Shown here in pieces: positions 3,438 to 40,558 of a stretch of DNA of 44,090 nt. Position numbers and translations under genes: made by a program. Source of the DNA: a virus (taxonomy: Duplodnaviria > Heunggongvirae > Uroviricota > Caudoviricetes); the IMG/VR virus record IMGVR_UViG_3300045988_048025; one strand, written 5' to 3'. How positions within the stretch are numbered: the stretch's first letter is position 1; each line of letters starts with the position of its first letter. The notes under the pieces are model-generated. The model searched no databases. It was not told the DNA's origin and saw only the letters and a program-made list of their open reading frames with translations.

Positions 3438-3458
3438 AGCCCCGAAAGGGGCTTTCTT
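3438..3458 (+). terminator. Terminator/attenuator-like hairpin between portal and head morphogenesis genes
   Basis: agcccc-gaaa-ggggct followed by ttctt. Confidence 0.4.
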
Positions 3459-3463
3459 ATAGT

Positions 3464-5356
3464 ATGCTATTAACTTTAGCACCACAGGGTTTAACTATGA
3501 GCTTACTTACATCACTCATCAGCCATCAGATATGGCTGCAACGCACCGCATCCGGTGAGGTGAAAGACCTCGCACCGTTCATTAAGGAGATGCGGGATGA
3601 AATAAAACGGCAGGTGCTGTTATTCGGTGATGACGGGCGGAGCACTGCGCGACTGAATAAACTGTTACTCGACCTTGAAGAAGCGCTAACCGGACTTACC
3701 GGCGATTGGCAAACAAAGCTGACAGAAGACCTTAAGGAACTGGCGGCATACGAGGCTGAGTGGAACGTAAAGACACTAACCGCCAACGTTAACGCGGAAT
3801 TTGTTACGCCTACCGCCGAACAGGTGTGGGCCGCCGCCGATTTTCAGCCATTATCGTTAAACGACAAGCCTGTTGACTTCACTAAATTGATGTCTGGTTG
3901 GGGTGAAACCGAAGTCGCCCGCCTCGTAACTGGAGTTAAGATGGGCTTTGTACAAGGTCAAACCACACGGCAGATTGTTAAGAATGTCGTAGGCTCTGGT
4001 GGGCTGGCCGACATCTCAGAACGTAACGCGGCTACAGTAATCCGCACCGCGCTGTCTCATGTATCCAACGAAGCCCGTAACGAGACGTACCGCCAGAACG
4101 ACGACATCATCGAGAAATACGAGTGGGTATCAACGCTGGACAGCCGTACCAGTACGATTTGCAGAGCCAGAGACAGGATGACGTGGGAAATCGGTAAAGG
4201 GCCGATGCCTCCGGCCCATCATAATTGCTTACTTGGGGATACTGTAGTATCTACCGGTAGTCCGGTTTCTAACATTTTTAAACGGGCGTACAAAGGCACT
4301 ATAGTCTATGTCTCTACAAGGTCCGGTCGCACCTTGTCTATCACCCCAAACCACCAGGTATTGACTACCAATGGTTGGGTTGCTTCCGGCCTTCTCAATG
4401 TAGGCGACAAGCTCGTGTGCGCTAAGGACTCTGCGCTCTCTCTCAAGCATAAGGAACACAACGTTGTAGCCAAGTTCTCCGATTTGTTTAGTGCGGCTAA
4501 TGTAGCGGTCAATCCTGCGGCGGTCCGTACAAGCCCAACCACCACCGAAGACTTCCACGGCGACGGAACCGACGGCGAAGTCGAGATTGTACTTGTCAAC
4601 CGCCTTTCCTGGGATAAAGTCAAGTCCGGACTGAATAAGCAAATCATTGACAAGGAACTCCCAGTGGCTTCCCGCATTTATGACTCCCTCTCTGGCTTTG
4701 GCTCTGCGAAGCAGTTCAGCATGGTCGGCCTTTCTCCCTCGGACAGCTTCATGCGCCGCGGCGGAGAGAGCGAGGCGCTCCTCGGGAGTAGCTTTAGCCA
4801 TTCTGATAAACATAGCGTCGCTGACACCGCGAATACTAACGCCGTTCTCTCTGAGAACGCGTATGACTGGGTTACACGAAACGCCGATAATCTTTCCGAT
4901 TTCAACTGGTCCGATGCCGTCGGTATAGAGCTTGATGATGTTGTCGATTTGGTCTTTAGTGAAGCTGATTTTTGCGGGCATGTTTATAACCTCGAAAATG
5001 AACAGAACTGGTATCTCGCAAATGGAATTATAGCACATAATTGTCGCTCAACAACCGCGCCAGTAATCAGTTCTGAGTTCGACTTCCTCGATAAAGGCGC
5101 AAAACGCGCGGCTAAGGGTGCGGACGGTGGTATGCAGGTAAGTGCAGACACCACCTATTATGAGTTCCTCAAACAACAACCTGCGTGGTTTCAGGACCAG
5201 GCGCTCGGCCCTGTTCGCGGTAAGATTTTCCGTAACAGCGGTATATCACCGGAAGAGTTTCGCGTAATATCTGTAGATGGTTTCGGGAATCCGCTCACGC
5301 TTAAGCAGATGGCGGAACTCGATAAACGTGTTGCTGATTATCTGAAAGGGGATTAA
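3464..5356 (+). CDS. Head morphogenesis protein (phage Mu F-like / SPP1 gp7-like) interrupted in frame by an intein-like element
   Basis: EWVSTLDSRTSTICRARD...PPAHHN then, after the insert, CRSTTAPV, which resembles the conserved H-x-N-C-R region of Mu F-like proteins; located after the portal. Alternative start ATG 3497. Confidence 0.75.
   Translation: MLLTLAPQGLTMSLLTSLISHQIWLQRTASGEVKDLAPFIKEMRDEIKRQVLLFGDDGRSTARLNKLLLDLEEALTGLTGDWQTKLTEDLKELAAYEAEWNVKTLTANVNAEFVTPTAEQVWAAADFQPLSLNDKPVDFTKLMSGWGETEVARLVTGVKMGFVQGQTTRQIVKNVVGSGGLADISERNAATVIRTALSHVSNEARNETYRQNDDIIEKYEWVSTLDSRTSTICRARDRMTWEIGKGPMPPAHHNCLLGDTVVSTGSPVSNIFKRAYKGTIVYVSTRSGRTLSITPNHQVLTTNGWVASGLLNVGDKLVCAKDSALSLKHKEHNVVAKFSDLFSAANVAVNPAAVRTSPTTTEDFHGDGTDGEVEIVLVNRLSWDKVKSGLNKQIIDKELPVASRIYDSLSGFGSAKQFSMVGLSPSDSFMRRGGESEALLGSSFSHSDKHSVADTANTNAVLSENAYDWVTRNADNLSDFNWSDAVGIELDDVVDLVFSEADFCGHVYNLENEQNWYLANGIIAHNCRSTTAPVISSEFDFLDKGAKRAAKGADGGMQVSADTTYYEFLKQQPAWFQDQALGPVRGKIFRNSGISPEEFRVISVDGFGNPLTLKQMAELDKRVADYLKGD
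4226..5041 (+). mobile_element. Intein-like in-frame insertion (272 codons)
   Basis: Begins with Cys (CLLGDTVVSTG, block A-like), contains ITPNHQVLTTNGW (block B-like TxxH), ends VYNLENEQNWYLANGIIAHN (block F/G-like, terminal HN) followed by +1 Cys; excision would restore HHN-CRST. Confidence 0.75.
4229..4981 (-). CDS. Antisense ORF nested in the intein: putative HTH plus PD-(D/E)xK (Vsr/DUF559-like) nuclease, candidate homing endonuclease
   Basis: ATG at 4981 with GAGG 8 nt upstream; HTH-like IDNIIKLYTDGIGPVEIGKIIGVSCNPVIRVLRENG; nuclease-like core YNLDFAVGSVAVEVFGGGW...DRRRIDRYISRTKQIGELGYNVVFL; protein-like composition while the sense strand here is Ser-rich linker. Track ORF is 4229..5038. 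Confidence 0.4.
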   Translation of the reverse strand: MPAKISFTKDQIDNIIKLYTDGIGPVEIGKIIGVSCNPVIRVLRENGVSIRGVSDAMFIRMAKATPEERLALSAAAHEAVRGRKADHAELLRRAKAREGVINAGSHWEFLVNDLLIQSGLDFIPGKAVDKYNLDFAVGSVAVEVFGGGWACTDRRRIDRYISRTKQIGELGYNVVFLMLERERRVLSAHELVAYIEKAGSNPTIGSQYLVVWGDRQGATGPCRDIDYSAFVRPFKNVRNRTTGRYYSIPK

Positions 5357-5817
5357 TGATGGGCTTTTTCAAAGTAACTGATGTGCCGTCGCGTCGCGTA
5401 GTCCAGTACGCTCGTGTGTCTGGCTCCGGCGAGAACGTAACCTACGTTGAAGATGAAAGTGTACTAGGTACACCTGTAGACGAGATGCCGTACGCGGATA
5501 AAACCGGTATCGCACTCTCCGCGGCAGGTATGCTTTATGAAATTCCGTATCTGGCCGATGCTGGCGATGTGTATTTCTCCGTACAACCGCAAGGCACCGA
5601 ACTGGTGGACGGCAGCGCAATTATCACTGTTGAAGTTAAGGCGGGTAAAGCCCCGTACGCGCTGACCTGGTACAAAGACGGTAAGGAAGTTGTAAACGCC
5701 CCGGAAGAGGCCTCGTCACTGACGGTTAATGCGGTCGGTGAATACTTCGTTAAAGTTACTGATGCCGATGGGGTAGAGGCGGTGAGCAAGGCGGCGAAGG
5801 TCACTAAACCAGAATGA
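5356..5817 (+). CDS. Virion-associated protein with C-terminal Ig-like domain (putative)
   Basis: Start overlaps the upstream stop (TAATG); C-terminal YALTWYKDGKEV...VGEYFVKVTDADG resembles Ig-like domains of phage decoration proteins. Confidence 0.5.
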   Translation: MMGFFKVTDVPSRRVVQYARVSGSGENVTYVEDESVLGTPVDEMPYADKTGIALSAAGMLYEIPYLADAGDVYFSVQPQGTELVDGSAIITVEVKAGKAPYALTWYKDGKEVVNAPEEASSLTVNAVGEYFVKVTDADGVEAVSKAAKVTKPE

Positions 5818-5820
5818 TAA

Positions 5821-5840
5821 AAGGCCCCTTACGGGGCCTT
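5821..5840. terminator. Hairpin terminator between convergent genes
   Basis: aaggcccc-ttac-ggggcctt, between the + gene ending at 5817 and the - gene ending at 5845. Confidence 0.55.
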
Positions 5841-5844
5841 AGTT

Positions 5845-6096
5845 TCAATACCCAGTCTCTTGGGTTAAGTTAATCTCTTTATTCCAGACGTTTTGGTTAT
5901 ACTTTTCACGAATCTGGCGCATACTTCTACCGAGCGCGGCGGATAGAGACATATCCCCGTCTTCTTGCGCGTCCAGTTGCATCTGCTGAAGCTCAATATA
6001 CGCCGAAATATCGCCGCGTAATTCAGCCTGTTCATACTCTTTTTTAAGAAAGGAACCAAGGTCCTGTACACGATGTTTTGCTGGTTTCGTAATCAT
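5845..6096 (-). CDS. Hypothetical protein (83 aa)
   Basis: ORF on the - strand with its own upstream promoter motif; no recognisable domain. Confidence 0.5.
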   Translation of the reverse strand: MITKPAKHRVQDLGSFLKKEYEQAELRGDISAYIELQQMQLDAQEDGDMSLSAALGRSMRQIREKYNQNVWNKEINLTQETGY

Positions 6097-6125
6097 TTCT
6101 TCTCGCCTCTTGTTGGTGTGAGTGA

Positions 6126-6154
6126 ATAGTACCCTATTATATTGGTGTCTGCAA
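6126..6154 (-). promoter_or_regulatory. Sigma70-like promoter for 5845..6096 (-35 TTGCAG, 17-bp spacer, -10 TACTAT) overlapping a 16-bp operator-like motif
   Basis: Read on the - strand: TTGCAG-acaccaatataataggg-TACTAT, then leader tcactcACACCAACAA. Confidence 0.4.
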
Positions 6155-6220
6155 ACTATTTGTTTACGTATTCCAGTTATTCTTCGTAATTGTAAATGTT
6201 AGAATAAACTATTCGAATAG

Positions 6221-6249
6221 TTGACTTTTCACTAAAAATATGATAAGCT
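6221..6249 (+). promoter_or_regulatory. Sigma70-like promoter (-35 TTGACT, 17-bp spacer, extended -10 TGaTAAGCT)
   Basis: TTGACT 6221..6226, TG 6241..6242, TAAGCT 6244..6249; near-identical copy at 37507..37535. Confidence 0.5.
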
Positions 6250-6362
6250 CCACCTGAGCTTGTGAAGTATGAACAAGCGACCGCGGCGCGGGCAGGTAAC
6301 GGAGCGGGACGTAAGTCCTGAGTGTAGTTACGCTGACGCGTTCGGAAGGGCCGTACTCTATT
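6250..6362 (+). ncRNA. Candidate conserved structured RNA element / leader, copy A
   Basis: About 110 nt downstream of the promoter, largely identical to 37536..37650; hairpins gcttgt...acaagc and ggac-gtaa-gtcc, the latter replaced by gtgcc-atta-ggcac in copy B. Confidence 0.35.
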
Positions 6363-6429
6363 GCTTGTGTAAAAAGTAACTGGTTTACTGAGATTACGCC
6401 GTTTCTATGTTTAAATGATAAGGACTAGC

Positions 6430-6449
6430 GCCCCGCTTTATGGCGGGGC
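6430..6449 (+). terminator. GC-rich hairpin downstream of RNA element copy A (weak terminator-like)
   Basis: gccccgc-tttatg-gcggggc followed by ttta. Confidence 0.3.
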
Positions 6450-6473
6450 TTTACTTATCGAGAAAGGAGAAAC

Positions 6474-6860
6474 ATGAATCTTAAAGCGACTGTCGTAGCG
6501 GGGGCATGTTTCATCATCCTGGCTTACGCACACGGCATCTACCAGTATCGCGCCGGCTGGAACGAAGGCCGGGCGAATCTCGTTTCGCAGCAACAGCAGA
6601 AAGCACAGGCTGAGTTAGCTAAGAAAACACAACGGCAGCAGCAGGACGAATCAAAGGCCGCAGCCGCGGACAACGAAGGCAAGACGAAATCGGAGGTGAT
6701 TACCCGTGAAGTCGTTAAGTACATTAAAACGCCTGGCCGCAGCGTGTGCACTTTTGACCATGAGCGCGTGCAGCTCAAGTCCCGCGCCGTCGCAAACGCC
6801 AATTCCATACCCGGATACGACGATGATGCAGCCGCCGTGCAAACTGGCCCCGCCAAGTAG
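6474..6860 (+). CDS. i-spanin (Rz-like), putative
   Basis: N-terminal TM segment VVAGACFIILAYA, then Q/K/E-rich predicted coiled coil; contains an embedded +1-frame lipoprotein ORF. Confidence 0.5.
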   Translation: MNLKATVVAGACFIILAYAHGIYQYRAGWNEGRANLVSQQQQKAQAELAKKTQRQQQDESKAAAADNEGKTKSEVITREVVKYIKTPGRSVCTFDHERVQLKSRAVANANSIPGYDDDAAAVQTGPAK

Positions 6861-11755: not shown

Positions 11756-12168
11756 TGGGCTACTTTGAGGACTTAACCAAAGCATTTGATGTGCCGCTGG
11801 TAGCCTTCGGAACCGCCAACGGCATCAAAGTCGCGCTTGAAAACATCGACGCGCCGACGTCAACCGATACACCGTATCTGGCGAGTTACATGTTACTTGC
11901 GGATACAGAACAGGCAGATTTGTTCTTCACAGAACAACGCTCAGGTGTTTATCAGGTCGACATTAACTACGCATCGGTGAAAGGTAGCGCGCCAATCAAT
12001 AAAATGGCAGACTTACTTAACACGGCGTTTAAAGCAGGTAAGTCATTTTCGCGTAACGACATCTGCGCCGAGGTTCAATCGGTTAGCCTGGGGCCGCTGA
12101 TTGTAGAAAACGGATGGGCCAAACGACCATTGTCAATTAACTTTATTGCATTCACCAAGAGGCTGTGA
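11752..12168 (+). CDS. Tail terminator / tail completion protein (putative)
   Basis: Position immediately upstream of the major tail gene; overlapping starts and stops. Confidence 0.4.
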   Translation: MMGYFEDLTKAFDVPLVAFGTANGIKVALENIDAPTSTDTPYLASYMLLADTEQADLFFTEQRSGVYQVDINYASVKGSAPINKMADLLNTAFKAGKSFSRNDICAEVQSVSLGPLIVENGWAKRPLSINFIAFTKRL

Positions 12169-13337
12169 ATATGGCTACAACTCCTTTTAAGGGCGCGAAT
12201 ACCGCGCAATTCTATGTGGCGGAAGTGACCCCTGGCGTAACACCGACTAACCCGGTCTGGTCGCCGTTGCGTAACACTGGCGGTGTTCCTGCGGTAACCC
12301 GCGATGCGCTGACTTCCAACGAACTCGACGGCAGCAGAGAAACCACATCCATCCGCACCGGTAACAAACAGGTTAGCGGGGAGTACGCCATCGAACTTAG
12401 CTCACGTAGCCAGGATGATTTCCTTGCGGGTGCTATGACTTCTACGTGGCAGGACGGGGTAGAGATTACGGGTGCTGAAATTACGGTCGCTCCAGCAGGT
12501 AAAACATTCACCCGCGCTGCCGGTAGCTTCATTACTGACGGTGTAGAGGTTGGCGACCTGATTGCATTCACCGACTTAACCGGCGACAACGCAAAACCGT
12601 TTATCGTGACCGCGGTTTCTGCTCTTGTAGTTACGGGTGCGGGTATCCAGCACACGCTGACAGCAGAGACTGTAACCACCGACGCTAAAACAGGCGATAA
12701 ATTGGAAACCGGTAACGCATGTAAGACGTTCTCCATCCTGACATGGTTCAAAGGACAGTGCAGGAACCATGACGCGTACATGCTGACCAAAGGCGTGGAA
12801 ATCTCCGGTTTCACCATTGAACAGGCCGTAAACGCGATGGTGACAGGCAGCTTCCCGTTCATCGGTCTGAGTCAGGAAATTCTTTCTGCACTGCCAGCAG
12901 GTTCTGATTTCTCTCAGGTGACGTTTACCGATGAGCCGTTCTCATCCGTAGATGTGTCTGTGTTCGACGGTTCTACGCCGTTGCGTTGCGATACTCTGAC
13001 CATCACCAACGACAACGGTGCTTCCGCGCAGTTCGAACTCGGCAACAGTAGTGTTGCGTTCGTGGAACGTGGCCGCGCAGCTAACACATTCTCCATCTCT
13101 GGTAAGCTGTACGACATGGCGATGATTCAGAAGTTTATCAACGAACAGCAGGTAGAGATTAACTCTATTCTGGCGGGGGTAAACGGGGCTATGTCTTTCA
13201 GCCTGAAACGCGCAGAGCTTACGGCGGTTACGCCAGAAATATCTGGCCCGGAATCAATTACGCAAAGCATAGAAGGACAGTCCACAGGCAATCAATATCA
13301 ATCTTCTATTGTAATACAGCGTATTAGCTACGCGTAA
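12165..13337 (+). CDS. Major tail (tube) protein (putative)
   Basis: 390-aa ORF upstream of the chaperone and tape measure genes; followed by a strong terminator. Confidence 0.55.
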   Translation: MNMATTPFKGANTAQFYVAEVTPGVTPTNPVWSPLRNTGGVPAVTRDALTSNELDGSRETTSIRTGNKQVSGEYAIELSSRSQDDFLAGAMTSTWQDGVEITGAEITVAPAGKTFTRAAGSFITDGVEVGDLIAFTDLTGDNAKPFIVTAVSALVVTGAGIQHTLTAETVTTDAKTGDKLETGNACKTFSILTWFKGQCRNHDAYMLTKGVEISGFTIEQAVNAMVTGSFPFIGLSQEILSALPAGSDFSQVTFTDEPFSSVDVSVFDGSTPLRCDTLTITNDNGASAQFELGNSSVAFVERGRAANTFSISGKLYDMAMIQKFINEQQVEINSILAGVNGAMSFSLKRAELTAVTPEISGPESITQSIEGQSTGNQYQSSIVIQRISYA

Positions 13338-13341
13338 GGAA

Positions 13342-13361
13342 AAGGCCCCGAAAGGGGCCTT
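13342..13361. terminator. Hairpin terminator between the major tail gene and the convergent HNH gene
   Basis: aaggcccc-gaaa-ggggcctt. Confidence 0.6.
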
Positions 13362-13362
13362 A

Positions 13363-13857
13363 CTATTTACCGTGGTTCTCGTGGAACCCTAAATCTCTTT
13401 CAGCAACTCTCCTCGCGGCAACTGCATCTAGTAGCGTTTTAAAGCACCCGATGTGTGTTTTTACGTTATTGTTGAATATCTGTGCGTACCACAACCTTTC
13501 TTTCGCGTTCCAGTAAACCCCGGTTACTCCTGATTTATTATTACGCTGTTTTGACATATTTTTATGGTTTTCCGCATTGGACTTTTTAGCTAAGTTAAGC
13601 GGTCTATTGTTTATTCGGTCATGGTCTAGATGGCCTATTTGATCTGACGAGGTTAGCTTATCGTTAGGATTGTTTAAGTCCCAAGCTATACGGTGCGCCG
13701 CGTGCCATTTACCTCGGAAAAATATCCTTCTATATCCGTCTCGCTGGACAGTACCCGCTTCCTCTCCAGCCTTAGCCCTCCCGGACCGGGTTACTCTGTT
13801 AAATATCCTTCCTGAAATTAAGTCGTATATGAAAAATTCATTCCAGTCCATAATCAT
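13363..13857 (-). CDS. HNH homing endonuclease with AP2 DNA-binding domain
   Basis: HNH region GYRRIFFRGKWHAAHRIAWDL...IGHLDHDRINNRPLNL...NHKN; AP2-like SGVTGVYWNAKERLWYAQIFNNNVKTHIGCFKTLLDA. Confidence 0.7.
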   Translation of the reverse strand: MIMDWNEFFIYDLISGRIFNRVTRSGRAKAGEEAGTVQRDGYRRIFFRGKWHAAHRIAWDLNNPNDKLTSSDQIGHLDHDRINNRPLNLAKKSNAENHKNMSKQRNNKSGVTGVYWNAKERLWYAQIFNNNVKTHIGCFKTLLDAVAARRVAERDLGFHENHGK

Positions 13858-13893
13858 CTCCTGTTGCGATAAGACCCCTTTCGGGGCCTTTTC

Positions 13894-14124
13894 TTACTCA
13901 TCAATGTTACCCCTGTACTCCCGTAACTTCTCCAGGCTTTCAATTGCTTCCGCTAAGTCTGTTCCTGTGTCTTTGTGTCCGCGAAGGCCCATACACAATA
14001 GCTTCTTCAATGCGTGCTGTAACGCTGGGTCCCGTATGTCGAAGGCGCGTAGCACGTCGTAAACGTCAACCGTCATAGTGCTGCCGTGAATGTTTGTCAT
14101 TGTGCGGTTGTATTTATTTGTCAC
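13894..14124 (-). CDS. Hypothetical protein
   Basis: ORF in the inverted island; no domain recognised. Confidence 0.4.
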   Translation of the reverse strand: MTNKYNRTMTNIHGSTMTVDVYDVLRAFDIRDPALQHALKKLLCMGLRGHKDTGTDLAEAIESLEKLREYRGNIDE

Positions 14125-14314
14125 TGTTAACTCTCTTAAATCGGGCTATGCCTGACTCGTTAATGTTGCCTATTTCAAAGAAGCTGCGATATTTAGGCGA
14201 ATACATTCTTACGTCGCCGTTCTCTAGGGTGACCCCTTCATATACCGCACCTACTTCGAATCCATTTTTCTCCGCGTACGGACTCACATCGGTACATTCA
14301 TACATATCTTTCAT
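14114..14314 (-). CDS. Hypothetical protein
   Basis: ORF in the inverted island; overlaps neighbours at start and stop. Confidence 0.4.
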   Translation of the reverse strand: MKDMYECTDVSPYAEKNGFEVGAVYEGVTLENGDVRMYSPKYRSFFEIGNINESGIARFKRVNSDK

Positions 14315-15441
14315 CCCAGCATCTCCGGTGAAATAGTTAAACGTGCGACCTCGCCATATTCGGCGCTATAAGTAATTACATTTGCACTACGGCCCGACAT
14401 CCATCCGCCGCGCGAGGCGTAGGCGTCTTTAGCCGCTAAGGTGCGGTGTTGCTCAACAATCATGTTACGGCTTTCTACAATCTTCTGGTGGTGCAGATGG
14501 CCTACGTGGGCGTAGCTGTAAACACTCTCGCCGAACGCTTTACGGAACTTGGCAATCATTACCGGTTCGATAGCGTCGAATCGCGCCTTATGCCCGTGGT
14601 GAAAGAACAGCGTAGTTTTGCCGTGTTGGACCATCTTGTAAACATCCGGCGACGTATCGACGAACACACGCGGCTCATTGTCGTACAGCGTACTAAACAT
14701 CTCAGCTAACCAAATCATTCCGCTTTCGTCGTGGTTCCCTTGCACGATAAGCAAGCGAACAGATTTATGCTTAACCAGCGCCATGTCAACAACACGGCGT
14801 ACCATACGAATCATGTATCGGACCAGTTTCTGATAACGAGTGTCCGCATCAAGAACATGACCACTCGCTGGCGTAACCGCATCCAGACTATCGAAGTGCG
14901 CGAAGTCACCCAGCAGGTTAATAACCCCAGTTCCTGCATCTGGTGCTTTCTGAAACGCCGCATCGAACCATCGGGAGAACAGGTCTTCCGCAATCTTCAT
15001 ATCCCAGTCGTCGCCGCTCTCGTCAGCCCAGGCCAGCATACCAAGATGGAAATCAGATACCGTGTACAGATTGAGTAGTTTATCATCGCGTTTGGCTCGA
15101 GTCGCTTTAACCGGCGCAACTGGCGTAATCTCCGACTTCATTCCTTCGATCACGGCTTTCATTAACTCGACCTGACGTTCGGCGTCGGTGTCTGTCTTAA
15201 CCCATTGCAACTTAGTGTTGCCGAACTCGTCCACCAGTGACGACGTTCCTTTAATTTTGTAGCCGTCCGGGACAAGATGGCTAACGTCACGACCGTGACC
15301 TACGCCTTTCTTCGCCAGCTTCGCTTTACGGATACGAATAACTCGGTCTGAGATGCCGTATTTACGGGATATGTCGATAATCTTTGTTCCGGCGTTCAAT
15401 TCTTCCTGTAACTGTTCGTCGGTTATTTTCTTCCGGGCCAT
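14311..15441 (-). CDS. N-terminal HTH domain fused to calcineurin-like metallophosphoesterase
   Basis: HTH-like ISRKYGISDRVIRIRKAKL; phosphoesterase motifs SDFHLG, LLGDFAHFD, GNHDE, HHGH, GHLHH. Confidence 0.6.
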   Translation of the reverse strand: MARKKITDEQLQEELNAGTKIIDISRKYGISDRVIRIRKAKLAKKGVGHGRDVSHLVPDGYKIKGTSSLVDEFGNTKLQWVKTDTDAERQVELMKAVIEGMKSEITPVAPVKATRAKRDDKLLNLYTVSDFHLGMLAWADESGDDWDMKIAEDLFSRWFDAAFQKAPDAGTGVINLLGDFAHFDSLDAVTPASGHVLDADTRYQKLVRYMIRMVRRVVDMALVKHKSVRLLIVQGNHDESGMIWLAEMFSTLYDNEPRVFVDTSPDVYKMVQHGKTTLFFHHGHKARFDAIEPVMIAKFRKAFGESVYSYAHVGHLHHQKIVESRNMIVEQHRTLAAKDAYASRGGWMSGRSANVITYSAEYGEVARLTISPEMLG

Positions 15442-15479
15442 GCTTACTTCCTCGTGTTTAGGATTTGTCCTATACTAGC

Positions 15480-15671
15480 TCACTTCTCTTTGACATTCGA
15501 GTTGCAAGCCCAGATTAAAATAAATACCCACGGCAGCAGAACCCAGCCGAGAAACAGATTAGCCATGAATATCGCCAGTTTCGCTTTATGTCCGCGCATA
15601 TGGGCCACTAAAAACGGGATAAAATAAACTAAAACGATAATGATTAAGAAGAACATAGTAATACCTGTCAT
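15480..15671 (-). CDS. Small membrane protein (two predicted TM helices)
   Basis: ATG at 15671 with RBS aggagc; MTGITMFFLIIIVLVYFIPFLVAH...LFLGWVLLPWVFILIWA. Track ORF extends to 15809. Confidence 0.45.
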   Translation of the reverse strand: MTGITMFFLIIIVLVYFIPFLVAHMRGHKAKLAIFMANLFLGWVLLPWVFILIWACNSNVKEK

Positions 15672-15712
15672 GGTGTAGCTCCTGTTTGAGTTAACATTGT
15701 TGGTGTAAGTGA

Positions 15713-15741
15713 ATAGTATCCTATTATGTTGGGGTGCGCAA
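15713..15741 (-). promoter_or_regulatory. Sigma70-like promoter for the inverted island (-35 TTGCGC, 17 bp, -10 TACTAT) with operator-like motif
   Basis: Same architecture as 6126..6154 and the same leader ACACCAACAA. Confidence 0.4.
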
Positions 15742-15849
15742 GTAATGTGATAGAATAATTTTGCGCCTAGTGTCGCACACGAAAAGCGGGTGGTTCCCGT
15801 CTGGCGCATTTACCATTAACCTGTAACCTCTTAACCAAAGGATTAAAGA

Positions 15850-25814: not shown

Positions 25815-25836
25815 AAGGCCCCAATCGGGGCCTTTT
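25815..25836. terminator. Hairpin terminator separating the + structural block from the - replication block
   Basis: aaggcccc-aatc-ggggcctt followed by ttctct. Confidence 0.6.
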
Positions 25837-34887: not shown

Positions 34888-37172
34888 TCCAAATCCTCCT
34901 CTGTCACTATCAGCATCTCATTCGGTTCGTATATTGTCTTCGGAATCTTGTTATCAGTTATCCGGGTGTTCAGCCTGTAACGGCCAGGGATTATCTGATT
35001 GTTTTCGTCAGTCCCCGGAACAAGATACCCAGCCTCAACCATTTTCTTAATCTTCCCGCGTTCTATGGCTTCTTTGGAGTTAAACGCCTTTGCGTTGGGG
35101 TCTGACTGTGCGAGCTTATTAGCTGCTGCGACTGTGATGCCTTCGTTGCCGTTGTAGGTTCCTTCCGCCAGTTCAAACGCTGCCAGTATCGTGGCCTCCG
35201 AGCTGTTGACAGCGTTCTCTACGGTTTTACGTACGTTTTCTTTACCTTCTTTCGGCAGCCCTTCTTCCCGTTCTTTCTCCTCGTCAGTCTTGAACGGTTC
35301 GAAGCCCCACGGCATCAATACAAGCGCCTTGTGTGGCTCGGGCAGGTCGAGGTTTACGATTGTGCCGTACCCCTCGGTGCTGCCGAGGAACTCGACAGCG
35401 CGATACTCTTTCGGTGGCGGTGCTTCACGGAACTGTACTGACTCAAGTACCATGCCAACCGTTTTCTGTTGAGGGCCGTGCTTAAACTTAGAGTGGTATA
35501 CGTTTATCTGGCGGTCGGTTGCACGTTCGATTGTCAGTTCCACGTCGACACCCGCATACAGCGCCCCGCTGCCACGGGCTTTCTTTCCGCCCTTCGGTGT
35601 ATGGTGGACGACGCCCACCGCAGCTTTAGTCGCGTCACGTACTTCTTTCAGGATGGCGATAACCTTACCCATACCGATTGCCGTCGATGAACTGTTCTCG
35701 TCGAACTTATCAATCGTCAGAGCCAGTGTCTGGTTGAGAGTATCGAACGCAACCATGCCGATTGGCTCGTCGCCAGCAGTTTCACGCATTAACTTAATCA
35801 GGCTTTTCAGTTTTCCGACCTCGCCCATATCGATAACATGTACATAATCTTTACCTTCCCCGCCATACTTAGCCGCGAGCGCGTCGATACGGGTGCGAGT
35901 AGCCGCGCCACCCTCCCCGTCGATATAGAAATGGTGGCAACGCTGGGTGTCCGCCCCCGCAAACCGGTATCCGGCGGCGCTGAGGTACATCATCCCCAGC
36001 GTATAGAAGGATTTATACGTACCGGACTCCCCGACGATATCCCATATGCAATCAGACGGCATGTACCCCTCAACGACGAAATCAGCCTTTAACGGTTCCG
36101 GTAGCTCGTCCTCCCCTGAGTCCTCGTCCTCCCCTGAGTCCTCGTCATCATCTTCCAGGTCGTCGAGGCTGCATGAAACGGACTCCCGCGCGCCCCATCC
36201 GATAGCCTCTGCAACTTCACTGAACGGCAGCCCGGTAGCGTCGCACGCATACTTCCACACCTCCTTCGGTGACATGCCCTCGGTCGCCGTGATGTCAGTG
36301 TCATGAATCATGGTTACGTTCGGCGCTTCGTACCCTTCACGCGGGAAACACAGCAGGAAGTCGTCCGGGCGCGGCGTCGGGTCGCTGTAGTTTTCTGCGT
36401 GTTCCGGCGTAGCGGGCATCTTCAGGCCCCGCGGCGTCATGATGCCGCCGTACTCGAATGCCAGTGCTTCAAACGCATCTGTAAACGCGGTGCGCAGTTC
36501 TTCCGGTATCTGGTAATCCGATGCGCTGCTAACGTCAACGGCGGGGATGCCTTCCAGTAATTCGTCCGGGTCAATCAGGTCGTTGCGGCGCGACAAGATA
36601 ACCTGCGAGCCAACTGGTGGCAGGTACATCGGCTGGGACAGAGTAAACCCGCTGCGGTCCGCCCCCATGCCTTTGAAGAAGTGCTCTAGCAATCCATGAC
36701 GAACGCGGATGATGTCACCGCCTTCAACCGGGCGGGCAAGCGGCATGACGACCCGAAAGCGTGGGGACTCATCGGTATGTGACGCCGTGGTGTAAAGGCA
36801 CATAACCAGGCGGCTGCGCTTAACCAGGCGCACCGCTTCCTGATACTCTTCCGGTGTTGCACTGTCGAAGTCCAGATACGCCAGCGACGATTTGCTTACA
36901 GACGCATCGCAGCGATAGAAGAAGCCTTTACGCGCTTGCTTAAAGTCACCGGTTTCCGGGTCTTTTACGGTGCTGTGTGCCGAGTCGCACGCGGCAGTGA
37001 TATAGCCAGGTGCGGTCTTCGGGTTAATCCCGCCACGAACAGCATCAAGCGGCTTGATTAGCTCTTTCAGGTCGTCCAGTGTTGCCGTGTGGGTGGTTCT
37101 GACGTTTATATCCTTTTTCTCTGCACGCGCGTTGCGACGAGACCACGAGTAGGATAAAATTACATCGGACAT
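34884..37172 (-). CDS. DNA primase-helicase (AEP/PrimPol-like N-terminal domain plus RecA/DnaB-like P-loop ATPase)
   Basis: AEP-like AYLDFD and SHTDESPRFRVVMPL; P-loop VGESGTYKS; acidic linker with tandem repeat. Confidence 0.75.
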   Translation of the reverse strand: MSDVILSYSWSRRNARAEKKDINVRTTHTATLDDLKELIKPLDAVRGGINPKTAPGYITAACDSAHSTVKDPETGDFKQARKGFFYRCDASVSKSSLAYLDFDSATPEEYQEAVRLVKRSRLVMCLYTTASHTDESPRFRVVMPLARPVEGGDIIRVRHGLLEHFFKGMGADRSGFTLSQPMYLPPVGSQVILSRRNDLIDPDELLEGIPAVDVSSASDYQIPEELRTAFTDAFEALAFEYGGIMTPRGLKMPATPEHAENYSDPTPRPDDFLLCFPREGYEAPNVTMIHDTDITATEGMSPKEVWKYACDATGLPFSEVAEAIGWGARESVSCSLDDLEDDDEDSGEDEDSGEDELPEPLKADFVVEGYMPSDCIWDIVGESGTYKSFYTLGMMYLSAAGYRFAGADTQRCHHFYIDGEGGAATRTRIDALAAKYGGEGKDYVHVIDMGEVGKLKSLIKLMRETAGDEPIGMVAFDTLNQTLALTIDKFDENSSSTAIGMGKVIAILKEVRDATKAAVGVVHHTPKGGKKARGSGALYAGVDVELTIERATDRQINVYHSKFKHGPQQKTVGMVLESVQFREAPPPKEYRAVEFLGSTEGYGTIVNLDLPEPHKALVLMPWGFEPFKTDEEKEREEGLPKEGKENVRKTVENAVNSSEATILAAFELAEGTYNGNEGITVAAANKLAQSDPNAKAFNSKEAIERGKIKKMVEAGYLVPGTDENNQIIPGRYRLNTRITDNKIPKTIYEPNEMLIVTEEDLE
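36105..36146 (-). repeat. 18-bp tandem repeat (2.3 copies) in the primase-helicase acidic linker
   Basis: ctcgtcctcccctgagtc repeated; encodes DSGEDE repeats. Confidence 0.75.
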
Positions 37173-37506: not shown

Positions 37507-37535
37507 TTGACTTTTACTTAAAAATATGCTAAGCT
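37507..37535 (+). promoter_or_regulatory. Sigma70-like promoter (-35 TTGACT, 17 bp, extended -10 TGcTAAGCT), paralogue of 6221..6249
   Basis: Near-identical to the promoter at 6221..6249. Confidence 0.5.
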
Positions 37536-37650
37536 TCACTGAGCTTGTGAGATATCGCAAGCGACCGCGGAGCGGCAGGGAACGCAACGCGTGCCATTAG
37601 GCACTTGAGTGTAGTTCCGCTGGCGCTTTCGGAAGGGCCAAAGTCTATTG
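37536..37650 (+). ncRNA. Candidate conserved structured RNA element / leader, copy B
   Basis: Largely identical to 6250..6362, with a compensatory change in one hairpin (gtgcc-atta-ggcac versus ggac-gtaa-gtcc). Confidence 0.35.
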
Positions 37651-37736
37651 TTAATCCCGCCTAAATACCCAAGCCACTGATAATTAAAAGTTTCTATAGT
37701 TGCCGTAAGCAAGGTAGAGAGTACTTCACTCCGCTG

Positions 37737-37756
37737 GGGTGGGCTAACGCCCACCC
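37737..37756 (+). terminator. GC-rich hairpin downstream of RNA element copy B (weak terminator-like)
   Basis: gggtgggc-taac-gcccaccc; T-run only 15 nt further on. Confidence 0.3.
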
Positions 37757-37815
37757 ACTGCGTTGCGTACTCTTTTAAGAAACGAAAGAATCACAACGGC
37801 ATCGTAACTATTCTC

Positions 37816-37844
37816 TTGCACACCCCAATATAATAGGACACTAT
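37816..37844 (+). promoter_or_regulatory. Sigma70-like promoter (-35 TTGCAC, 17 bp, -10 CACTAT) with operator-like motif
   Basis: TTGCAC-accccaatataatagga-CACTAT, 35 nt upstream of the first + strand early gene. Confidence 0.45.
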
Positions 37845-37878
37845 TCACTTATCGGAACGAGACAGAGGAGTTGGGGTT

Positions 37879-38148
37879 ATGTTTAAGAAGGGTCAGTTGG
37901 TGAAAACGAAACGCGGTGGGCAGTACGTAATAGTGTTGCAGGACGAGAACGAGTATGACGAGGATAATATAGTCGACGTATGGGGCCTGGTAAGAAAGAA
38001 ACCCGGGTTCGCCTTACGCGATAATCTGGAATTAATTGGCAACAATTTTAAATTCAAAGGGGTATTCGATGGCGGACTGAAAGCCTCATTCACAACGGCA
38101 TCGAATCATGATGCTCGTGCCGACGACTCTGAGGGAGGTTGCCGTTAA
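37879..38148 (+). CDS. Hypothetical early protein
   Basis: ORF with RBS gaggag. Confidence 0.4.
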   Translation: MFKKGQLVKTKRGGQYVIVLQDENEYDEDNIVDVWGLVRKKPGFALRDNLELIGNNFKFKGVFDGGLKASFTTASNHDARADDSEGGCR

Positions 38149-38749: not shown

Positions 38750-38786
38750 TACGCTGCTACACAGCAGCGTATCATTTTTCTCATTT
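38750..38786 (+). terminator. Rho-independent terminator
   Basis: Perfect 9-bp stem tacgctgct-acac-agcagcgta followed by tcatttttctcattttt. Confidence 0.65.
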
Positions 38787-39063: not shown

Positions 39064-39336
39064 ATGAATTTTAACAGCTACACCGTGACCGTTGATTTTG
39101 AGGGGCTGGAGTTGCCCCTCCCTAACAACTACCGGTACATAACGCGCGATAATAATGGGTTTATTCAGGGGTGGAGGAACAAACCGACGGACACTGAGTT
39201 CGGGATGTCAGGAGGAGAAGAGTTGCCGGTCACTTTCGGGCATCAGAGTAGCAATGGAGAACTTAAAACGGTGATTCGTAAGTATCGTCGCCGCGATAAC
39301 ACCGGGCTTATCGCAATAACAGGCGCTGTTGAATAA
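39064..39336 (+). CDS. Hypothetical protein
   Basis: ATG 39064 (track ORF from TTG 39058); a 49-codon ORF at 38925..39074 with a strong RBS precedes and overlaps it. Confidence 0.4.
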   Translation: MNFNSYTVTVDFEGLELPLPNNYRYITRDNNGFIQGWRNKPTDTEFGMSGGEELPVTFGHQSSNGELKTVIRKYRRRDNTGLIAITGAVE

Positions 39337-39355
39337 GCGAGAGGAGAGACAGAAG

Positions 39356-39868
39356 ATGAGTAACAAAAACGAAGTATTCGAGTGGCTGATTGACCAACTA
39401 CGGCAGCAGGTAAATAGCAACCCGTACAAGCAACAGTGCGAAGACCTGGCGCACGAGGTGTTGTCACTTAAGAATCAGTTACGCGACGCTTCGGCACAGA
39501 TTAAGGAGTTGCACCTGGCCTTGGTCAAAGCAACAGGTGATGCGGAGGCCTACAAACTTATACGCAAGGGTGGGTACATCGATGGTGGTAAGCGCTATGT
39601 AGTGGGTGAACATGTGCCTGGGACAACGGTAAATTGTCGGTGTACCTCGACGCCTGTACCGCCGGAACAATCTGGTTGCCGGAAAGAAGACGCGCAGGAA
39701 TGCCACCATAACTGGCGATTAGTTAACGGAAAGGCTCCCGCCGTATGTATTAATTGCGGTGTGACCAAAGCTGATGAGTGCAAGCACGCCAACACAGCGC
39801 AGTTACGTAAAGGCTTCGCGCCGGGGTTTACTAAAAAATGTCTGGATTGCGGGGCTAAACTTAAATGA
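39356..39868 (+). CDS. Cys-rich (putative zinc-ribbon) protein
   Basis: ATG 39356 with RBS gagaggagaga; C-terminal CRC...CINC...CLDC pairs. Confidence 0.45.
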   Translation: MSNKNEVFEWLIDQLRQQVNSNPYKQQCEDLAHEVLSLKNQLRDASAQIKELHLALVKATGDAEAYKLIRKGGYIDGGKRYVVGEHVPGTTVNCRCTSTPVPPEQSGCRKEDAQECHHNWRLVNGKAPAVCINCGVTKADECKHANTAQLRKGFAPGFTKKCLDCGAKLK

Positions 39869-40068: not shown

Positions 40069-40268
40069 TTATGGCACAGAGATACGATTTAAAAGAAGAC
40101 TGGGTTACTGGGTGTATTGACTTAGAGAAAGACGCAGACGGTGACTGGGTTGGCCACAGAGACTATGCGAAACTTGAAGCAAAGTTACGTGAATTCGCCG
40201 AACAGGTAATTAACGAACCTTGTTCGAAAGTTACAGAAGAAATGGCCCGCGAGATTCTCGGAATATGA
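40065..40268 (+). CDS. Hypothetical protein
   Basis: ORF overlapping neighbours. Confidence 0.4.
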   Translation: MIMAQRYDLKEDWVTGCIDLEKDADGDWVGHRDYAKLEAKLREFAEQVINEPCSKVTEEMAREILGI

Positions 40269-40558
40269 GCCTTGCAACTGACATCCTGAAACGAAGCGGC
40301 CTTGCGCCGCTTTCACCGAGAGCGAACACCAGAATACACAAGCGACGCCGTAACGCGCTGCACCCGGAGATTCAAGCCAGACGCAAAGCAGTCCGCGCCT
40401 GCGGATTCCAGAACGGGAAGGCCGTGAATCTCGGTGAGTTTAAAACAAAGGAACGTGCAGCAATCGCTAATCGGTTATTTAATTACTGGAAATCGCTGGG
40501 GTACGATGATATTCCGACGAAACCGCAGAGACGACAATACATCTGGAGACACAAATAA
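40265..40558 (+). CDS. Basic hypothetical protein
   Basis: ATG 40265 overlapping the upstream stop (ATGA). Confidence 0.4.
   Translation: MSLATDILKRSGLAPLSPRANTRIHKRRRNALHPEIQARRKAVRACGFQNGKAVNLGEFKTKERAAIANRLFNYWKSLGYDDIPTKPQRRQYIWRHK

Follow-up and report, generated by a model that had tools for sequence, protein, structure and literature searches.

Late gene expression in phage lambda is controlled by the promoter PR′, a 194-nucleotide (nt) 6S leader, the terminator tR′, and the antiterminator Q. To our knowledge, put is the only well-characterized RNA that alone makes bacterial RNA polymerase termination-resistant. The put RNAs of phage HK022, putL and putR, are cis-acting antiterminators that bind the β′ zinc-binding domain of RNA polymerase, and putL forms the extreme 5′ end of its transcript as two stem-loops joined by a single nucleotide (PMC9378689). 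In this study, we analyzed a structured RNA element that occurs twice, as copy A and copy B, in the IMG/VR virus record IMGVR_UViG_3300045988_048025; this whole stretch of 44,090 nt is called the window. The element had been noticed from the letters alone (the sequence-only reading), as about 110 nt behind a promoter that recur almost identically 31 kb away. Our comparative analysis identifies it as a new RNA family with covariation support, absent from Rfam, and the element may belong with the promoter-proximal antiterminator RNAs. The virus of the window is a virulent siphophage in the genus Kagunavirus (subfamily Guernseyvirinae) that infects E. coli, and its genome is complete or nearly so. 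The literature search found neither an account of the element nor mapped start sites in Guernseyvirinae; one RNA-seq paper on a Kagunavirus (vB_Eco_K1B4, PMC12645636) gives gene-level classes only.

Covariation of the Element

A covariance model of the element (R1) was built from seven variants. On the window, R1 found exactly two sites, 6254-6363 and 37539-37650 (E about 1e-27), and no third copy. When aligned within the window, the modules of copies A and B share 78.9% identity over 147 nt (E = 4e-26), and the alignment consists of perfectly conserved blocks with diverged helices between them. The recurrence 31 kb away was real, but "almost identically" overstated the likeness.

The combined alignment of Kagunavirus and Jerseyvirus comprised 72 matches, 39 of them distinct. 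In the distinct sequences, 96.1% of the cells pair, compared with 29-40% after sliding of the 3′ partners by 1-3 columns. Compensatory changes on both sides were found in 13 of the 28 pairs across the two genera, as the sequence-only reading had expected of a functional RNA from its two copies. None of 500 shuffles attained the observed pairing or covariation score. Because the alignment was fitted to the model, these values somewhat favor the structure; this does not apply to the slid controls or to the complete exchange of helices from one genus to the other. In Kagunavirus alone (32 distinct sequences), 97.6% of the cells pair and six pairs are changed on both sides. These data support the conclusion that the element is a conserved structured RNA and not a simple recent duplication; the covariation in relatives contradicts a duplication without conserved structure, which the sequence-only reading had named as one possible refutation. 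Two invariant G-U pairs lie in the outer part of helix P2, and P3 often has a further one. The complementary strand is therefore unable to fold in this way, and the functional form would be the transcript of the + strand.

An Rfam search, which the sequence-only reading had also suggested, gave no match in the whole window (Rfam 15, gathering thresholds). At E ≤ 10, the region 6150-6480 gave only terminator-hairpin or chance matches.

Architecture of the Two Copies

RNAalifold and single-sequence folds gave one architecture, which consists of hairpin P1, a linker of 1-2 nt (GA in Kagunavirus, A in Jerseyvirus), a helix P2 capped by P3, and a conserved tail. The paired portion spans about 88 nt, or about 110 nt including the tail. 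The features of the two copies are as follows.

6221..6249 (+): promoter of copy A as read from the sequence, −35 TTGACT at 6221-6226, 17-bp spacer, TG at 6241-6242, −10 TAAGCT at 6244-6249
6255..6260 (+): −10-like hexamer TGAGCT, 5 bp past the true −10, overlapping the predicted start site and the 5′ arm of P1
6254..6363 (+): structured RNA, copy A (R1 116.1 bits, E = 8e-28)
6258..6278 (+): P1 hairpin of copy A from RNAalifold, GCUUGU, loop GAAGUAUGA, ACAAGC
6281..6345 (+): P2 of copy A, a long irregular helix that encloses P3
Outer part of P2 in copy A (+): CCG-c-GGCGCG with CGCGUU-CGG, containing the two invariant G-U pairs
Inner part of P2 in copy A (+): CAG-GUAAC with GUUAC-g-CUG
6305..6320 (+): P3 apical hairpin of copy A, CGGGAC, loop GUAA, GUCCUG
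6346..6363 (+): 3′ tail of copy A, AAGGGCC-N4-UCUAUUG, predicted unpaired
6430..6449 (+): leader hairpin of copy A, a terminator-like site, GCCCCGC...GCGGGGC followed by UUUACUUAUC, ending 24 nt short of the spanin start codon (6474)
37507..37535 (+): promoter of copy B, TTGACT at 37507-37512, 17-bp spacer, TG at 37527-37528, TAAGCT at 37530-37535
37539..37650 (+): structured RNA, copy B (R1 117.2 bits, E = 4e-28)
Parts of copy B (+): P1 at 37543-37562, P2 at 37565-37632, P3 at 37591-37604, tail at 37633-37650
37717..37774 (+): compound stem-loop 3′ of copy B, with core GGGUGGGC-UAAC-GCCCACCC at 37737-37756
Outer stem around the core hairpin of copy B (+): GAGAGUAC with GUACUCUU, then UUAAG

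P1 starts 8 nt past the −10 hexamer in both copies and in every homologue. Both hairpins that had first drawn attention to the locus were recovered. The shared hairpin gcttgt...acaagc is P1 (6258-6278), with the form gcttgtga...tcgcaagc at 37543-37562 in copy B; the hairpin that keeps its structure with different sequence belongs to P3, where ggac-gtaa-gtcc (6307-6318) in copy A corresponds to gtgcc-atta-ggcac (37591-37604) in copy B. P1 is invariant within Kagunavirus and is swapped for UACGCU-UUC-AGCGUA in Jerseyvirus, so that four of its six pairs are changed on both sides. In P2, 7 of the 17 pairs are changed on both sides; one pair was seen as C-G, U-A, and A-U, and another as U-A, G-C, and A-U. 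The sequence and length of P3 vary between variants, with at least five different sequences, and the hairpin is kept each time. The loops of P1 and P3 also vary. The tail AAGGGCC...CUAUUG is nearly invariant across both genera.

No conserved peptide is encoded, as the sequence-only reading had stated: copy B and the Jerseyvirus copies are without the start of the open reading frame (ORF), and frame-breaking indels separate the copies. The ORF concerned has 36 codons from an ATG in copy A (6269-6379, +) and no Shine-Dalgarno sequence, and it is probably no gene. A leader peptide was also rejected. The UUG of CUAUUG becomes CUG or UUA in variants, and the downstream mini-ORFs are not conserved.

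Genomic Setting

The + strand carries two blocks of genes. The first begins with small early genes and continues with holins, endolysin, and terminase up to portal and head morphogenesis, and the second extends from the spanin gene through scaffold, capsid, and head-tail genes to tail genes. The replication genes are on the − strand. There are no tRNA or tmRNA genes in the window. Copy B heads the early-lysis-terminase-portal operon. Copy A was confirmed between the head-morphogenesis region, which ends with the ORF 5356-5817, and the spanin/scaffold/capsid operon, and heads the operon for the most abundant virion proteins. At the start of this late operon, no other non-coding sequence is as conserved as its module.

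Distribution and Evolution of the Element

Copy A was present in every Kagunavirus and Jerseyvirus genome examined. The region around it shares 98-99% identity with K1ind3, the BASEL phages Bas70-76, RP180, and many others, and copy A itself showed 93-99% identity in 181 phage records, 65 of which are Salmonella phages. Copy B is optional and varies more, its inner P2/P3 being of at least four types. It is absent from K1ind3 and from the Jerseyviruses, where a strong promoter precedes an unrelated leader. The paralogous pair is thus true of the window but not the general state, as K1ind3 and the Jerseyviruses carry only the copy upstream of the spanin/capsid operon.

The Jerseyvirus homologue (celemicas 12812-12908; R1 51 bits, E = 1e-11) lies at the same position upstream of the spanin gene, and ten further Jerseyvirus homologues were found in IMG/VR. 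In Jerseyvirus, inner P2 is CGCG with CGCG and P3 is GGGCGU-CACA-ACGCCC, with exchanges of U-A to C-G within the genus. Copies of the different genera have almost no helix sequence in common, and the element is kept.

A rearranged, distant version was found upstream of the spanin gene in Enterobacter phage phiEap-2, an unclassified member of Guernseyvirinae (11893-12016). Its module contains a promoter of the type seen before the other copies (TGGACT-17-TGaTAACCT), a 5′ hairpin, and a hairpin CGUAAC...GUAA...GUUACG that resembles inner P2 and P3. The core GACCGCG-CGGAAGGGCC-GGAGUCU is contiguous, and the P2b/P3-like hairpin lies upstream of it; outer P2 therefore cannot form as in Kagunavirus. 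The contiguous core points to a short core as the deepest conserved part, which in Kagunavirus and Jerseyvirus would be split by the insertion of P2 and rejoined by outer P2. One further variant of this type was found (L089).

Apart from chance matches, two pattern scans of IMG/VR gave only Guernseyvirinae contigs of 41-45 kb and fragments. Ten further pattern matches (L059, L060, L079-L081, L084, L085, L087, L090, and L091) were rejected as chance in GC-rich coding DNA. The element is absent from Serratia phage Eta, though the structural-gene module is common to both. A search of 5,426 E. coli genomes turned up no element-like sequence, and across 100,044 species genomes of bacteria and archaea the matches were confined to two small contigs, one in a Bacillota metagenome-assembled genome (JAEWLW010000073.1) and one in Taishania pollutisoli (scaffold48, 738 bp). 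These contigs carry Kagunavirus-type and Jerseyvirus-type copies and are evidently phage contamination. Host mimicry and a prophage origin of the element were rejected on this basis.

Two copies are chimeric (L004, 15576-15686, and L003, 3338-3448, Escherichia phage Ec1-ASingh), with A-type flanks and promoter and B-type inner P2/P3. This indicates recombination or gene conversion between the two paralogues. The K1ind3 leader at the position of copy B (36420-36650) holds the exact reverse complement of the leader terminator of copy A (taaagccccgccataaagcggggcgct), which suggests that promoter/leader modules are exchanged by recombination.

Promoters, the −10 Repeat, and Downstream Hairpins

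The flanks were surveyed in 63 distinct copies with enough flanking sequence. A sigma-70 extended −10 promoter lies directly 5′ of the element in 63/63, and a stable GC-rich hairpin lies 56-90 nt 3′ of it in 63/63. In every copy, the start site predicted from promoter geometry is within a few nt of the 5′ end of the element. A promoter of the type TTGACT-17-TGaTAAGCT precedes every Kagunavirus copy, and the Jerseyvirus version is TAGACT-17-TGtTACGCT. The promoter of copy A agrees with the sequence-only reading in sequence, spacing, and position, and copy B has the same arrangement. A generic promoter scan missed that of copy A because TAAGCT matches TATAAT at only 3/6 positions.

The GC-rich hairpin that had been described after each copy was found 66 nt from the element in copy A (6430-6449) and 86 nt in copy B (37737-37756). 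The downstream hairpins carry compensatory changes, and all A copies have one at the same place. A terminator scan scored that of copy A as an intrinsic terminator.

The −10 hexamer is repeated shortly downstream, as TAAGCT/TGAGCT (5 bp on) in Kagunavirus and TACGCT/TACGCT (3 bp on) in Jerseyvirus, and so the repeat changes with the −10 between genera. The exact TACGCT repeat of Jerseyvirus is the 5′ arm of P1 (celemicas 12801-12822). TGAGCT at 6255-6260 matches its own −10 TAAGCT at 5/6 positions, with a G at the critical second position. At lambda PR′, sigma-70-dependent pausing is induced by an element resembling a −10 within the first transcribed bases, and a −10-like pause element is possibly present in putL as well (PMC9378689). 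By resemblance, the repeat may be an element of this pausing kind. The −10/repeat region of Kagunavirus (6244-6260) also forms a DNA inverted repeat, AAGCTC-N4-GAGCTT.

Comparison with put and with Lambda Signals

Our best guess is that HK022 put is the closest functional analogue, so that the element would work like put without being a member of the put family. Like put, the element occurs as two paralogous copies in one phage, each behind a strong sigma-70 promoter. It is placed at the predicted 5′ end of the transcript, as putL is, and its two stem-loops are joined by 1-2 nt. The stems are irregular with conserved bulges, terminator-like hairpins and long operons follow, and no dedicated phage protein is identifiable. 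There are also clear differences. Sequence and structure show no homology to put; the paired structure is about 88 nt here versus about 70 nt in put, the second stem is much longer, and a conserved single-stranded tail is added. The hosts of the element are virulent Guernseyvirinae, whereas put belongs to lambdoid temperate phages.

The arrangement also resembles lambda PR′-tR′, with a strong constitutive promoter, a leader of about 200 nt up to a terminator-like hairpin, lysis and morphogenesis genes next, and a −10-like hexamer at the predicted start of the transcript. In the lambda Q system, however, specificity resides in DNA (the Q-binding element) and a pause, whereas a covarying RNA is conserved here. 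A further likeness is to the nut and rrn signals, in that a promoter-proximal RNA signal with a hairpin and a conserved linear motif would act on the elongation complex; CUCUAUUG is faintly boxA-like. A boxA was rejected, as the tails ACUCUAUUG, GUCUAUUG, and GCUAUAUUG do not match the core GCUCUUUA. No 15-nt hairpin of the boxB type with a conserved loop was found in the element, where the loops of P1 and P3 vary.

A Putative Cis-Acting Leader

The reading that we prefer, at a rough probability of 40%, is a cis-acting leader that lets RNA polymerase read through terminators, put-like in its action. The leader would act in cis on the polymerase that has just made it. The modified elongation complex would then pass the leader hairpin and later terminator-like sites into the spanin-scaffold-capsid-tail operon and, in phages with copy B, likewise into the early-lysis-terminase-portal operon. 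This would be processive antitermination or anti-pausing, either by RNA alone as with HK022 put or by RNA plus a factor as with lambda nut. Polymerase or some factor would make contact with the invariant core (A-CCGCGG..., ...UUCGG-AAGGGCC), and P1, inner P2, and P3 would serve as scaffolding. The free change of peripheral helices around an invariant core across genera suggests recognition by a conserved partner, for example the RNA polymerase common to E. coli and Salmonella.

The read-through leader is favored by a covarying hairpin before the first gene after each copy, that of copy A scoring as a terminator. Strong terminator-like hairpins on the + strand also lie within the copy B operon, one (38750-38771) in the group of small early genes and one (3438-3453) where the portal gene gives way to the head-morphogenesis genes.

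Partner proteins were searched for with Pfam on 30 unannotated small and mid-size ORFs and with PHROGs on the first 10 of these. The scans gave only an HTH_17 protein, several domains of unknown function, NinH-like proteins, and an Enc34-type single-stranded DNA-binding protein, with no antiterminator of the Q, N, or other families among them. No phage RNA polymerase or late activator was recognized. The failure to detect an N- or Q-like protein is compatible with the version in which the RNA acts alone, although a structurally novel analogue of Q may have escaped these scans.

Several points weigh against such a leader. A put covariance model (R2) was built from eight sequences (HK022 putL and putR, HK639, phiEt88, CobraSix, S9-5, UPF_BP1, and PDP110P2), and the homologues retrieved were mostly from lambdoid or P22-like phages. 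R2 gave nothing at either copy at E ≤ 10 with filters off, and membership in the put family was rejected; in the reciprocal search, R1 found no match in HK022. The U-tract is poor or absent after the Jerseyvirus and copy B hairpins, with none directly after the copy B core. The copy A operon (6221 to about 13342) has no strong internal terminator beyond the leader hairpin, so that a need for processive antitermination there is not evident. The copy B operon of K1ind3 and the Jerseyviruses is expressed without the element. Retention of the leader hairpin would be hard to explain under constitutive read-through. The start site, termination at 6430-6449, and read-through are all predictions. An argument from a long operon, in which polymerase from copy A would cross the antisense cluster 13363-15809, was dropped because this cluster has a boundary terminator and its own adjacent promoter-like motifs.

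A stronger form of the read-through leader is doubtful. It would make the element a second, evolutionarily independent class of RNA that alone reprograms bacterial RNA polymerase to a terminator- or pause-resistant state, a put analogue that drives the structural-gene operon in virulent Guernseyvirinae of E. coli, Salmonella, and Enterobacter. If this is true, a structurally unrelated put-like RNA exists in a large group of virulent phages, RNA-based elongation control is more widespread, and a second system is at hand for structural study. Many Guernseyvirinae isolates have been described for phage therapy or biocontrol, and the promoter-plus-leader cassette is a candidate part for phage engineering.

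Alternative Explanations

The candidate functions listed by the sequence-only reading (a small-RNA pair, an RNA-polymerase-modifying antiterminator, or a processing site) are not separable by sequence analysis, and the alternatives differ in how well the comparative data fit them.

It is unlikely, in our view, that the product is an abundant terminated small RNA that acts in trans as a decoy or regulator through its conserved core, with read-through only incidental. Such RNAs would start at about 6256 or 37541 and measure about 195 nt from copy A and about 215-235 nt from copy B. Small-RNA genes typically combine a strong promoter with a structured RNA and a terminator-like hairpin, and the layout here resembles lambda PR′-6S RNA-tR′; two copies would raise the dose, and an invariant core with a variable periphery is seen in protein-binding RNAs. 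However, the module holds the only promoter-like sequence in the short gap between the terminator of the preceding gene and the spanin gene in all 11 Jerseyvirus copies and in phiEap-2, and the operon therefore apparently depends on read-through. Hairpins without U-tracts after copy B and the Jerseyvirus copies also fit poorly with a terminated RNA. The conserved tail has no complement within the phage beyond chance, no complementary phage target was found, and no host sequence resembles the element.

Equally hard to favor is a 5′ untranslated region that governs the fate of the mRNA, in which the hairpin blocks 5′-end-dependent decay by RNase E, as the ompA leader does, or the fold provides a processing site that determines how stable and how abundant the highly expressed structural-gene mRNA is. 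P1 lies within 0-3 nt of the predicted 5′ end in all lineages despite the sequence differences, a second stable hairpin stands just upstream of the spanin ribosome-binding site, and the universal copy heads the operon of the most abundant virion proteins, all of which would suit a stabilizer. But a generic stabilizer needs neither an invariant core that spans genera nor a P2 with conserved bulges and tandem G-U pairs. The element is at least 110 nt from the start codon, and direct translational control is unlikely.

A riboswitch-like sensor, in which binding of a small molecule or ion to the fold would govern the hairpin or terminator behind it, is very improbable. The order of promoter, aptamer-like conserved fold, hairpin, and ribosome-binding site fits the transcription-terminating type, but no Rfam family matches, and the spacer of 56-90 nt between element and hairpin is poorly conserved. 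A competing pairing of the element with the hairpin is conserved neither between the copies nor between the genera, and this speaks against an attenuator of the riboswitch type; RNAalifold found only the hairpin itself in the downstream leader, and the alternative pairings of single sequences were not common to both copies. The hairpins are also often without U-tracts.

A site acting as DNA (protein binding or a replication origin) or a recent duplication without RNA function is hardly credible: the core does include the palindrome CCGCGG (CCGCGCGG in phiEap-2) and copy B does lie at the divergent junction where cumulative GC skew has its minimum, but the compensatory changes and the invariant, strand-specific G-U pairs are an RNA signature, the element is kept across genera that share almost no helix sequence, CCGCGG occurs at 24 sites in the genome, which also led us to reject a restriction-site or palindrome role, and the universal copy A is at no skew switch, the skew merely following gene orientation, so that an origin was rejected as well.

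Other Observations in the Window

Three candidate partner proteins had no sequence match in the PDB. A protein of 97 amino acids, rich in Arg, is encoded at 40265-40558 (+), just upstream of the holin genes, and is conserved in Kagunavirus; a likely Jerseyvirus counterpart was seen by eye only in an alignment. Its predicted fold is a β-hairpin plus a helix at low confidence (predicted local distance difference test score 66). The fold search gave nothing significant, the best matches being an AP2 domain and a double-stranded RNA-binding domain (E about 0.9). A protein of 179 amino acids (39329-39868, +; PHROG 6094) has a helical N-terminal region and a Cys-rich C-terminal part with CxxC pairs, possibly zinc ribbons. 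No counterpart of it was found at the equivalent site in Jerseyvirus celemicas.

Hairpins of the form AAGGCCCC-N4-GGGGCCTT were located at 5821-5840, 13342-13361, 13871-13890, and 25815-25834. Three of the four are at the ends of gene blocks, with convergent junctions at 13342 and 25815, and the set resembles a family of bidirectional terminators.

A 24-nt motif, CCAAYATAATAGGRYACTATTCAC, occurs in exactly three copies, at 6122-6145 (−), 15709-15732 (−), and 37825-37848 (+), with 0 expected by chance, and is also found in Jerseyvirus. Each copy lies about 25-35 nt 5′ of a start codon, in front of the gene 5845-6096 (−), the − strand cluster from about 15672 down to 13363, and the gene at 37879 (+), respectively. 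The motif holds a TATAAT or CATAAT box and the palindrome AATAG-N4-CTATT, without a good −35, and is probably a separate class of operator-controlled promoter.

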